The notes under the pieces are model-generated. The model was given only the letters and a program-made list of their open reading frames with translations. It ran no database searches and was not told the origin of the DNA. A DNA stretch of 7,570 nucleotides from a virus (lineage: Duplodnaviria > Heunggongvirae > Uroviricota > Caudoviricetes), in IMG/VR virus record IMGVR_UViG_2740892272_000003. The stretch is one strand, 5' to 3'. Both the position numbers and the translations under genes were made by a program. This document shows positions 5,347-7,570 of this stretch, piece after piece (positions within the stretch are counted from its first letter, which is position 1; each line of letters starts with the position of its first letter).

Positions 5347-5356
5347 ATCCCGCCCC

Positions 5357-5482
5357 NNNNNNNNNNNNNNNNNNNNNNNNNNNNNNNNNNNNNNNNNNNN
5401 NNNNNNNNNNNNNNNNNNNNNNNNNNNNNNNNNNNNNNNNNNNNNNNNNNNNNNNNNNNNNNNNNNNNNNNNNNNNNNNNNN
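5357..5482. other. Run of 126 N: assembly gap or masked sequence
   Basis: Uninterrupted N characters. This removes the sequence immediately upstream of the holin and left of the IS110 element. Confidence 0.99.
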
Positions 5483-5512
5483 CCCCGTTACTTTATTCGT
5501 ACCCCTTATAAT

Positions 5513-5700
5513 GGGGTGTTAGCCAGCCAGACCCGGCATGATTACTGCCCCCAGTCGTCCATGATCCGGGGGGTGATGTCACCGGGTCTGGTGGGGCGCT
5601 GGTAACCGCTAATAGGGGTCAGGTCAGGCACTTTTGCCGGGACCGTCTGTAACGTGGATGCCGGTACCTGCTCCCCGTGGTTATCTGGTTAACCCATATA
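5513..5700 (+). ncRNA. Candidate IS110-type bridge (guide) RNA in the element left end
   Basis: About 200 bp of GC-rich non-coding sequence with several local inverted repeats (for example GGTGatgtCACC and GGCActttTGCC) lies between the left-end -10 box and the transposase RBS. It contains an internal copy of the right-end 9-mer TAATAGGGG. Assignment is by analogy with IS621, where the left end encodes the bridge RNA. Confidence 0.3.
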
Positions 5701-5713
5701 CAAGGGAGACAGA

Positions 5714-6910
5714 ATGACCGAATCCAGCGATTACGAATCCGTCCAGGTCTTTATCGGCGTTGATGTCGGTAAAGATACGCATCACGCTGTTGCCATTAAT
5801 CGTTCAGGTAAACGCCTGTTCGATAAAGCATTACCCAACGACGAAAACAAACTCAGGTCGCTAATATCTGACCTGAAACAACATGGTCAGATACTGCTGG
5901 TTGTTGATCAGCCAGCTACCATCGGTGCGTTACCTGTCGCCGTTGCCCGCTCAGAAGGAGTCCTTGTCGGATACCTCCCTGGACTGGCCATGCGCCGCAT
6001 AGCCGACTTACACGCCGGTGAAGCTAAAACTGATGCTCGTGACGCTGCCATCATTGCCGAAGCTGCCCGTACCCTGCCTCACGCGCTACGCACGCTGAAA
6101 CTGGCTGACGAGCAAATCGCCGAACTCTCCATGCTCTGCGGCTTCGATGATGATCTTGCCGCACAGACAACGCAGGCCAGCAACCGTATCCGCGGCCTTC
6201 TGACCCAGATACATCCGGCACTGGAGCGCGTTCTCGGTCCGAGACTTGAGCACCCGGCGGTACTCGATCTTCTCCAGCGATATCCCTCACCAGAAAAACT
6301 CGCTTCGCTGGGTGAGAAGAAGCTGGCAGCCCAGCTCTGCAAACTTGCGCCTCGTCTGGGTAAACGCCTTGCAGCAGACATAGCTCAGGCACTGGCCGAA
6401 CAAACCGTCGTCGTTCCCGGCACGAATGCCGCTGCCGTAGTACTGCCACGTCTGGCACTCCAGCTCATCACGCTGCGTAAGCAAAGAGACGAGGTGGCGC
6501 TTGAGGTAGAACAGCGAGTTCTTGCTCACCCTCTTTACCCGGTCCTGACCAGTATGCCCGGAGTCGGTGTCAGGACCGCAGCCAGACTCCTCACCGAGGT
6601 CGCCTGCCGCGCCTTCGCCTCTGCCGCACATCTCGCTGCTTATGCTGGCCTTGCGCCGGTAACTCGGCGATCCGGCTCGTCAATACGCGGTGAGCATCCC
6701 TCGCGACGGGGTAATAAAGCTCTCAAACGGGCGTTGTTCCTGTCGGCCTTCGCCGCGCTCAGGGATCCGCTCTCCAGGGCTTACTACACCCGCAAAATGA
6801 GTCAGGGAAAACGACACAATCAGGCGCTTATCGCCCTGGCGAGACGACGCTGCGACGTTCTGTTCGCCATGATGCGCGACGGGACTTTTTATACCCCGCA
6901 GGGGTCATAA
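5714..6910 (+). CDS. IS110-family transposase/recombinase (N-terminal DEDD RuvC-like domain, C-terminal Transposase_20 domain)
   Basis: 398-aa ORF with an N-terminal IGVDVGKDTHHAV motif and a C-terminal MPGVGVRTAARLL...AAYAGLAPVTRRSGSS...RRGNKALKRAL motif. RBS is AGGGAG, 5-nt spacer, ATG. Confidence 0.92.
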   Translation: MTESSDYESVQVFIGVDVGKDTHHAVAINRSGKRLFDKALPNDENKLRSLISDLKQHGQILLVVDQPATIGALPVAVARSEGVLVGYLPGLAMRRIADLHAGEAKTDARDAAIIAEAARTLPHALRTLKLADEQIAELSMLCGFDDDLAAQTTQASNRIRGLLTQIHPALERVLGPRLEHPAVLDLLQRYPSPEKLASLGEKKLAAQLCKLAPRLGKRLAADIAQALAEQTVVVPGTNAAAVVLPRLALQLITLRKQRDEVALEVEQRVLAHPLYPVLTSMPGVGVRTAARLLTEVACRAFASAAHLAAYAGLAPVTRRSGSSIRGEHPSRRGNKALKRALFLSAFAALRDPLSRAYYTRKMSQGKRHNQALIALARRRCDVLFAMMRDGTFYTPQGS

Positions 6911-6915
6911 CATGC

Positions 6916-6921
6916 TTGACA
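6916..6921 (+). promoter_or_regulatory. Right-end -35 hexamer (TTGACA); with the left-end TATAAT (5507-5512) it would form a junction promoter in the circular IS intermediate
   Basis: A perfect TTGACA lies 5 bp after the transposase stop, and a perfect TATAAT lies at the inferred left end. Outward -35 and inward -10 halves are a known feature of IS110/IS1111-family circle junctions. Confidence 0.35.
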
Positions 6922-6960
6922 ACTTAATAGGGGCACCCCCCCGACAGACCTGTGCTATCG

Positions 6961-6997
6961 GAAAGAAAAAAGGCCATCAGCAAAACTCTGATGGCCT
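6961..6997 (-). terminator. Rho-independent terminator (minus strand)
   Basis: A perfect 10-bp stem (AGGCCATCAG 6971-6980 / CTGATGGCCT 6988-6997) with a 7-nt loop is followed on the minus strand by TTTTTCTTTC (plus coords 6961-6970). Confidence 0.5.
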
Positions 6998-7041
6998 GAA
7001 TCACCTTTACCAATATTGTATGAAAAAACACGCACGACTAA

Positions 7042-7171
7042 TTGACAATAATTTTCATTTCCATTAAAAAAGATCGCGTAGCATTCTTAATTCATGAGGA
7101 ACTTTACCCGCCAGCAATCTGAGTAGCGAAAGCTGTTCATCCCCAATGTTTTTGCTGGCGGGTCCTTTTTT
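7042..7171 (+). ncRNA. Candidate small transcript unit: sigma70-like promoter plus hairpin and T-tract terminator
   Basis: TTGACA (7042-7047), a 17-bp spacer and TAAAAA (7065-7070) are followed by an 11-bp inverted repeat (CCCGCCAGCAA 7107-7117 / TTGCTGGCGGG 7152-7162) and T6 (7166-7171). A second GC hairpin with a T-rich tail lies at 7182-7215. It contains no ORF longer than 10 codons. Confidence 0.2.
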
Positions 7172-7474
7172 CTACGGTCCTCCTCCCCGGAGGGGGGCAT
7201 TTCATTATTTTTCTAATCGTTACTGGTGAGAAGGCGGAAGAAAAAGCCAGTTCTTCGCCCCTAAATAACAGCATGATTCCAGTCCATGCAAAATCTGATT
7301 TCCAGCTCACACATACCGAGCGCTGTACAAAAAACCGCCAGCCAAGGCAGTTAAGAGTGTGTTCCCGGGGTTTGCTTAGAATATTTTGTAAGTTGTCCGA
7401 AGAGATATTTACAACACCAGAATGATGCATTATCAGTCCCCTGCCAGAGGTTCACTACGTAACCTGACCGACAA

Positions 7475-7570
7475 TGAAGTGGCACACTGAATTTGGCCAC
7501 CTGAACAGAGGTGATATGCTCACCTCAGAACAACACAGGTGCTCCAATGAAAAAAAGAAATTTTAGCGCA
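7475..7570 (+). mobile_element. Left end of an IS3-family element (IS911-like), truncated by the window edge
   Basis: The terminus begins TGAAGTGGCACACTGAATTTGGCCACC (a typical IS3-family 5'-TG end). It is followed at 7547 by ATG AAA AAA AGA AAT TTT AGC GCA, which encodes MKKRNFSA, matching the IS911 OrfA N-terminus from memory. Confidence 0.6.
7547..7570 (+). CDS. IS3-family transposase OrfA (IS911-like), 5' partial (first 8 codons only)
   Basis: MKKRNFSA matches the IS911 OrfA N-terminus; the ORF continues beyond the window. Confidence 0.55.

Follow-up and report, generated by a model that had tools for sequence, protein, structure and literature searches.

The Q proteins of lambda, phage 82 and phage 21 let polymerase read through terminators, a process known as processive antitermination. 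IS110-family insertion sequences (IS) such as IS621 reportedly use a bridge RNA. ISEc20, another IS110-family element, is listed together with IS2, IS4 and IS911 among the IS types of Shigella sonnei 53G (Hawkey et al., 2020, PMC7373316). The stretch of DNA analysed here, referred to as the window over its full 7,570 nucleotides, belongs to an IMG/VR virus record of the Caudoviricetes (IMGVR_UViG_2740892272_000003). It carries the late genes of a lambdoid prophage up to a phage-21-type holin, followed by a run of 126 N, a complete ISEc20, a stretch of phage leader and the end of an IS911. From the letters alone it had been read as a prophage whose late-operon control region is replaced by two insertion sequences and a gap (the sequence-only reading). 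Comparison with relatives points to another origin. The N run probably joins two contigs that come from two different decayed S. sonnei prophages, in which case the window is a chimeric scaffold.

The open reading frames (ORFs) of the window were scanned against Pfam, and relatives were fetched as loci L001 to L081. These represent some tens of copies among the thousands of assemblies with these genes (3,085 index blocks).

Two prophage remnants probably joined at one N run

The features on which the comparison turns are located at the right of the holin:

5347-5356, minus strand: the last 10 bases of the left contig, ATCCCGCCCC; on the coding strand GGGGCGGGAT, a Shine-Dalgarno-like G run
5357-5482: run of 126 N, a scaffold join
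5483-6942, plus strand: complete ISEc20 (IS110 family), 99.6% identical to annotated ISEc20 (99.5-99.9% across annotated copies, query positions 1-1472)
6943-7474, minus strand: native lambdoid holin leader of 532 bp with the 7428C/7431T allele, recognized by comparison with relatives
7475-7570, plus strand: left end of IS911 (IS3 family), 96 nt of which are in the window, with TGAAGTGGCACACTG at 7475; the right contig ends inside IS911

From left to right, the holin flank CATATCCCGCCCC is followed by the 126 N, by CCCCGTTAC, ISEc20 and GGGGCACCCCCCC, and then by GACAGACC. The edges of the N run are CCCGCCCC on the left and CCCCGTTAC on the right, with the same CCCC at both. The sequence-only reading had described late genes that all lie on the minus strand from a holin at 5346, and beyond them an N gap, an opposite-strand IS110-family element, a non-coding island of about 540 bp and an IS911-like element. 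The ORFs and Pfam matches bore out the first part of this description, and all four features were found where they had been placed, the island measuring 532 bp.

The two sides of the N run match different loci. Positions 1-5356 (contig A) are 100% identical over 5,356 nt to the finished chromosomes L058, L059, L060 and L062, and 99.9% identical to L061. In L058 to L062 neither ISEc20 nor IS911 is present, the holin continues directly into the leader, and the Q gene (PF06530) is found 2.2 kb upstream. The endolysin protein of the window was likewise found on finished chromosomes of about 4.8-4.96 Mb. Positions 5483-7570 (contig B) are 99.95% identical to L007 and to L075 (S. sonnei 627346, CP179952.1). 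To the left of ISEc20, these two loci contain a 208-nt holin fragment (5158A, 5185C), an IS2 at the window equivalent of 5149-5153, an endolysin gene (97.8% identical) and Terminase_3-type packaging genes. On the far side of IS911 they contain a DicA-like repressor, a cro-like gene, an inverted DnaC-like gene and IS600-type genes, with no tRNA genes and no Q. IS600-type orfA/orfB pairs are also found in L007.

Single-nucleotide polymorphisms (SNPs) on both sides separate the two loci. The holin of the window has the haplotype 5158G/5185T, whereas the four ISEc20-occupied copies that were checked (L007, L014, L015 and L075) have 5158A/5185C. When all fetched loci were tabulated, the ISEc20 site beside the window's holin allele was empty in every copy (15/15), and the occupied sites comprised three that adjoin IS2 and two of another allele, including L015. 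In the leader, the window has the IS911-linked 7428C/7431T, and the leader beside its holin allele in finished genomes differs by two SNPs (A/C). Exact sequence common to both loci amounts to 171 nt at the holin 5' end (5186-5356) and 485 nt of leader (6943-7427). A composite pattern of the window's holin allele joined to ISEc20 gave no matches in IMG/VR and none in JGI metagenomes, while the same pattern with an empty site matched three IMG/VR contigs. Exact-junction scans of GTDB species-representative genomes gave no match. In IMG/VR the junction of ISEc20 with the leader was found in L007 only, which differs from the window by one SNP on the right and by IS2 on the left.

Further comparison revealed that both remnants occur within one genome in two IMG drafts, which join them in mutually inconsistent ways. 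In IMGVR_UViG_2675903469_000006, positions 1-5234 of the window are followed by IS2, a holin fragment and an ISEc20 end. In L008, the leader and IS911 are followed by a single N and then by endolysin, holin, leader and tRNA genes. L065 combines the window's holin allele with the IS911-linked leader allele, and the site between them is empty. Among S. sonnei chromosomes, CP180015.1 (L081) holds the remnant that matches contig A (remnant 1) and CP179952.1 (L075) the one that matches contig B (remnant 2); these are the chromosomes of strains 590907 and 627346, respectively (PMC12511311).

The junction itself is well defined in relatives. In L007, L014, L015 and L021 (IMG/VR) and in L075 (CP179952.1), the holin flank passes directly into the left end of ISEc20 (5/5). 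Wherever relatives were sequenced through, CATATCCCGCCCC continues straight into GTTAC (ISEc20) or CCGACAG (leader), with no room for 126 nt. Judged by these copies, the N run hides no phage sequence, and if the join were real the true distance would be about -4 nt. Toxin genes masked by the N run were also considered, as stx is located between Q and holin in Stx phages; there is no room for them at the junction.

A scaffolding error is the most likely source of this arrangement. The window would be a scaffold of two short-read contigs from an S. sonnei-type genome with two paralogous lambdoid prophage remnants. Contig A would derive from remnant 1, whose order in finished genomes is Q, a PR'-like site, a tR'-like hairpin, ORF6N, four tRNAs, leader, holin, endolysin, Rz/Rz1, HNH endonuclease, the small and large terminase subunits (TerS and TerL), a portal gene cut by IS4, and chromosomal genes. 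Contig B would derive from remnant 2, in which the C run 6-10 nt ahead of the holin ATG took up ISEc20, and IS911 is found another 532 bp upstream; the S. sonnei copy of this holin has its 3' end cut by IS2 as well. The 208-nt holin fragment that is left would be too short to assemble alone, and its reads would have been absorbed into the end of contig A. The ISEc20 mates of holin-fragment read pairs would then have linked A to B, at which point, we infer, the scaffolder put in 126 N. The last base that empty and occupied alleles share is exactly where contig A stops. Contig B begins at exactly the CCCC common to nearly all ISEc20 copies, to the left of which the copies diverge.

The sequence-only reading held that the late genes of the window are cut off from their native promoter. 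This does not agree with the comparison, as 1-5356 matches finished chromosomes with an uninterrupted leader and Q, and the occupied copies checked have the other haplotype. The lysis and terminase genes of the window are most likely still downstream of their own Q and PR'. The severed state does fit the other remnant (CP179952.1/L075 and L007), where ISEc20, leader and IS911 follow one another and the holin is also cut by IS2; it is remnant 2 that is truly severed from Q.

It is possible, though unlikely, that the join is real. ISEc20 would then lie 6-10 nt upstream of the remnant 1 holin, either through a second insertion in the paralogous C run or through exchange with remnant 2 in the 171-nt segment, and the gap would mark where assembly broke off at an IS with many copies. 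In favor of this, the two edges overlap by 4 nt, CCCC, just as at the exact ISEc20 junctions of L007, L015 and L075, and ISEc20 targets C runs and has used the holin site before. Moreover, the IS patterns of the relatives are not nested: L010 has IS2 and IS911 with an empty ISEc20 site, L015 has ISEc20 only, and L007 and L075 have all three. Therefore either recombination between paralogous prophages or precise loss of ISEc20 must have occurred. Had a real join arisen through such an exchange, Q would no longer be connected with the lysis and terminase genes, in line with the proposal made from the sequence alone. However, the holin allele of the window was empty in all copies and is linked to ISEc20 in no IMG/VR or JGI metagenome contig, the four occupied sites checked have the other holin haplotype, the leader to the right of ISEc20 carries the SNPs and the IS911 of remnant 2, and the same two loci are mis-joined in other drafts of the species.

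Some of the points that favor a real join also weigh directly against a chimeric scaffold, and others may be added. The join was judged solely by comparison with other genomes, and the sample comprised only some tens of copies, whereas thousands of assemblies carry these genes. Some read pairing must have led the scaffolder to connect the contigs, which it did at a small positive distance. The estimated gap of +126 comes closer to a genuine adjacency of contig A and ISEc20 than to an adjacency of contig A and the leader, in which the end of contig A would fall about 1.46 kb within contig B. The empty site beside the window's holin is a perfect copy of the site that ISEc20 already used, and either a second insertion or a crossover in the 171-nt common holin segment is biologically possible. 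Lastly, the non-nested distribution of ISEc20, IS2 and IS911 across strains (L010 vs L015) means that the loci exchange segments or lose ISEc20.

ISEc20 and its C-run target

The element in the window consists of the following parts:

5483-5486, plus strand: left end, a C run (CCCC) followed by GTTAC from 5487
5487-5713, plus strand: 5' non-coding region of 227 nt (fold -98.3 kcal/mol, z=-2.55), a candidate bridge RNA by analogy with the family
5714-6910, plus strand: transposase, with DEDD_Tnp_IS110 (PF01548) and Transposase_20 (PF02371) domains
6935-6942, plus strand: right end, ...GGGGCA at 6935 followed by a C run at 6936-6942

Both ends were defined by 27 independent insertion sites. The transposase domains cover residues 14-168 (PF01548, E=6.9e-49) and 277-358 (PF02371, E=7.1e-22). 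The idea that ISEc20 reaches into the N run was discarded, as three and then 27 independent copies fixed the left end at the C run and GTTAC. Comparison of the two ends of the element revealed no terminal inverted repeats. An outward or circle-junction promoter in the ends was sought by eye and rejected; in a circle junction about 40 nt would separate TTGACA (6915) from TATAAT (5508), too wide a spacing.

The C run at both junctions is the sole feature common to the 27 independent sites, and no 11-14-nt target consensus was found among them. A long specific target was therefore rejected as the reason for repeated ISEc20 hits at the holin site. In L013, L018 and L030, the right end of ISEc20 is directly followed by GTTAC or GTTAT. 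A G6 run at 5569-5574, within the 5' non-coding region, complements the right end together with its C run. Together, this G run and the structured 227-nt region fit a candidate IS110-type bridge RNA that would guide insertion into C runs. An Rfam scan of the whole window (E<=1) gave a spurious microRNA within TerL as its sole match, with no bridge-RNA or phage RNA family.

The C run occupied in remnant 2 lies 6-10 nt upstream of the holin ATG and corresponds on the coding strand to the Shine-Dalgarno-like GGGGGGCGGGAT. The empty site reads CATATCCCGCCCCCCGACAG and the occupied site CATATCCCGCCCCGTTAC; there are 6 C in the former, and in the latter the element is flanked by 4 C (left) and 7 C (right). 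This comparison identifies ISEc20 as a clean simple insertion, with nothing deleted or replaced. Across holin, ISEc20 and leader, L015 and L075 are 99.9% identical, and because they have their flanking haplotypes in common, their insertions were taken to be one ancestral event.

Another ISEc20 was found in a prophage late region of E. coli O145 RM9872 (L001, 1226-3120). In O145:H28 strains, the element separates a Q-tRNA region from the gene for the terminase small subunit, and lysis genes are missing from this interval. The O145:H28 locus is another prophage late region remodelled around ISEc20.

A further reading of the holin site is that of a reversible switch, for which the phase variation caused by IS492 is an analogue. 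ISEc20 would truly sit in the C run of an otherwise intact holin-endolysin-terminase block, and repeated insertion and precise excision would toggle a domesticated lysis cassette. The occupied site in L015, L007 and L075 and the empty one in L010 and in remnant 1 would then reflect these events. Such a switch is improbable for this locus.

Late-control module, leader and late genes

The sequence-only reading had expected the late promoter, antitermination site and terminator just to the right of 5346. That expectation is wrong for this phage type, whose finished genomes place a PR'-like promoter, a tR'-like hairpin and the Q gene itself about 2.2 kb upstream of the holin. Read in the late direction, L059 (CP049169.1) is arranged as follows (coordinates of that locus):

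Q stop at 7561: DnaB and RusA genes, then a Q gene of 128 aa (PF06530, E=2e-52)
7566-7595: PR'-like site, TTGACC-18-TATATT, 10/12, 5 nt after the Q stop
7657-7673: tR'-like hairpin and T run, about 62 nt past the -10 hexamer
between the tR'-like hairpin and 8681: ORF of 72 aa, then an ORF6N gene
8681-8702: terminator-like hairpin
8795-9105: tRNA-Met, tRNA-Arg, tRNA-Thr and tRNA-Gly
9364 and 9719: two terminator-like hairpins in a 0.5-kb leader
9786: holin start

This layout corresponds to the classical Q-PR'-tR' arrangement, and it is from the layout that we infer promoter and antitermination function. In these relatives Q is separated from the holin by the ORF6N gene, the tRNA genes (four in number) and the leader of 532 bp. 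In the window itself no Q gene was found among the ORFs or by Pfam, although finished genomes with the same holin allele have Q 2.2 kb upstream of it. A search for a holin-proximal promoter at 5100-7570 gave one weak site (9/12), no more than expected by chance, and no PR'-type promoter with a terminator within about 100-200 nt was found in the window.

The 532 bp to the right of ISEc20 are the leader of this module. The stretch is 99.6% identical to one in enteroinvasive E. coli strains, and in CFSAN029787 it lies between the tRNA cluster and a class II holin, abutting the latter. The uninterrupted sequence across leader and holin reads CATATCCCGCCCCCCGACAGACC. With the native leader intact and ISEc20 a clean insertion, the control region cannot be said to be replaced. 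The ORFs of the leader gave no Pfam match. Three hairpins were found in it:

6971-6997, minus strand (late transcript): strong terminator-like hairpin with a 10-bp stem (6 G-C pairs), followed by the T run TTTTTCTTTC
7333-7352, minus strand (late transcript): second terminator-like hairpin, found by hairpin search
7108-7170, plus strand: long hairpin (CCCGCCAGCAA...TTGCTGGCGGG) followed by a T run, antisense to late transcription and conserved in the leaders of related prophages

In the uninterrupted allele the hairpin at 6971-6997 lies about 40 nt upstream of the holin ATG. Native leader and window part ways at 7476/7477. The left inverted repeat of IS911 starts TGAAGTGG, and orfA, with an ATG at 7547, begins with MKKRNFSA. 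The complete element that L007 has at this junction matches annotated IS911 with 99.8% identity.

Because terminator-like hairpins lie between PR' and the holin (7657, 8681, 9364 and 9719 in L059), late expression must rely on processive antitermination. This leads to the suggestion that the join is real and the late genes are nevertheless not silenced, Q-modified polymerase from PR' reading through IS911 and ISEc20 as it already reads through these hairpins, provided that the far side of IS911 is colinear with the tRNAs and Q. L015, in which ISEc20 is found within an otherwise colinear array of Q, ORF6N, tRNAs, leader, holin, endolysin and Rz, speaks for this. Silencing by ISEc20 alone in such an array is not a given, because the native leader already has terminators for an antiterminated polymerase to pass. 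However, the window stops 96 nt into IS911, which leaves colinearity out of view, and L007 and L075, the only long relatives with both insertions, are rearranged beyond IS911 and are without Q and tRNA genes. A real join whose IS elements leave the late genes active is very improbable. That the 126 N conceal phage sequence, such as a holin-proximal late promoter or antitermination site, can be given scarcely any credence: an N run could in principle hide sequence, but every relative read through passes from the holin flank straight into GTTAC or CCGACAG, so that the intact promoter that might have been sought inside the gap has no place between holin flank and ISEc20 end, and the candidate late promoter lies 2.2 kb away, 5 nt after the Q stop.

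The remainder of contig A is made up of late genes, preceded on the left by the end of an IS4:

1-about 119: terminal part of an IS4 copy (1-119/124 are 95-96% identical to annotated IS4 ends); the left contig ends within IS4
84-1331, minus strand: HK97-type portal (Phage_portal, E=3e-107)
1240-1422, minus strand: ORF of 60 aa, from the ORF list
1434-3167, minus strand: intact terminase large subunit TerL, 577 aa (TerL_ATPase and TerL_nuclease domains)
3164-3667, minus strand: terminase small subunit TerS, P27 family (Terminase_4)
3780-4130, minus strand: HNH endonuclease (HNH, E=1.6e-16)
4173-4649, minus strand: Rz spanin (PF03245 Phage_lysis, E=3e-52)
4235-4417, minus strand: Rz1, 60 aa, embedded in Rz, with a lipoprotein-like start (ORF list; Rz1 Pfam match in relatives)
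4634-5131, minus strand: phage-21-type lysozyme (endolysin), 165 aa (PF00959 Phage_lysozyme, E=2e-45); identical protein in finished chromosomes
5131-5346, minus strand: phage-21-type class II holin, 71 aa (PF04971 Phage_holin_2_1, E=1.5e-35)

The lysis genes form a phage 21-type cassette, in which a P21 S holin, lysozyme and Rz/Rz1 are found in a single translationally coupled block. Start and stop codons overlap at the holin/endolysin, endolysin/Rz and TerS/TerL junctions. The closest E. coli lysis cassette is that of FDAARGOS_944 (L002), from which the window differs in the dual-start region of the holin (5337-5346), with MYQMEK in place of MKSMD. The match to FDAARGOS_944 stops at 5337, and an IS junction was considered as the cause of the divergent holin N-terminus. 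This was rejected, since the same natural allele is found in enteroinvasive E. coli CFSAN029787. The lysis locus is a mosaic, because the holin 5' end and leader match the CFSAN029787-type phage while the remaining cassette is closest to FDAARGOS_944.

The view that the lysis and packaging genes are otherwise intact and translationally coupled was right for the overlapping codons and for TerL. It fails for the portal gene, which loses about 33 C-terminal codons to IS4 and departs from the intact relative after ...RPGG. A frameshift probably also affects the portal gene close to the 5' end. Residues 1-18 of the relative's portal (MFFQGLFQRKNNTPVTTP) match a 44-aa GTG ORF at 1106-1240 in another frame, and the remainder matches the ORF at 84-1331; as a guess, a 1-nt deletion near 1170 could lie behind the shift. 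In finished genomes the portal gene is followed by the IS4 transposase, and beyond IS4 come the chromosomal genes raiA-pheA-tyrA or bamE-recN, with no head or tail genes. An intact prophage, with full-length portal, protease, capsid and tail genes, was thus not found. With a portal cut short by IS4 and without any head or tail genes, remnant 1 is unable to make phage, and the window's prophage remnant is defective regardless of the late-promoter question. A defective prophage of the IS-riddled Shigella kind had been correctly recognized, although the cause visible in the window is IS4 truncating the portal and not the loss of a promoter.

Comparison with known systems

All parts of the window are of kinds already known: phage-21-type lysis genes, an HK97/P27-type terminase, a Q-dependent late operon with a tRNA cluster, and ISEc20, IS911 and IS4. 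The locus is a case of routine IS-driven prophage decay in S. sonnei, in which IS4 truncates one portal, and ISEc20, IS911 and IS2 dismantle the lysis region of the other remnant. Its practical value is that of a warning. In draft assemblies of Shigella or E. coli, paralogous prophage remnants can become joined across an N run at an IS boundary and so give the appearance of a 'promoterless late operon' that is absent from finished genomes; adjacency across such N runs should be distrusted. For phages of this type, the control of late-gene expression should be looked for 2.2 kb upstream of the holin, behind the tRNA cluster. A mildly interesting side point is the use of C-run targets by ISEc20 together with its structured 227-nt region and complementary G run.

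Compared with the late modules of lambda, phage 82 and phage 21, the finished relatives of contig A have a Q gene, a PR'-like site, a tR'-like hairpin and further pre-holin terminators. In their case the module is outside the window, about 2.2 kb from the holin behind the ORF6N gene and four tRNA genes. In this they resemble Stx-type phages, with their Q-tRNA-(stx)-holin layout. The phage 21 cassette (S21 pinholin, R21 signal-anchor-release (SAR) endolysin and Rz/Rz1) is matched in holin family, lysozyme, nested Rz1 and overlapping codons. The holin of the window has its own N-terminus, MYQMEK, and pinholin and SAR properties are predicted from family.

ISEc20 is similar to IS621 and other bridge-RNA elements of the IS110 group in its DEDD/RuvC-like and Transposase_20 domains and in having no terminal inverted repeats. 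It also has a short sequence repeated at both junctions and a 227-nt structured non-coding region before the transposase. It differs in that its sites are without an 11-14-nt target consensus and its non-coding region is without an Rfam match.

The window further resembles known assembly artefacts at repeats. Both contig ends at the N run fall exactly on graph branch points, and at their outer ends the contigs stop within IS911 (right) and IS4 (left); here the artefact is deduced from comparison with other genomes. The closest counterparts are the IS-riddled cryptic lambdoid prophages of S. sonnei, which share the organism group, the IS set and the interrupted or rearranged prophage genes (Hawkey et al., 2020, PMC7373316). 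There is no essential difference between these and the present locus, where pieces of two such remnants would be juxtaposed across an N run.

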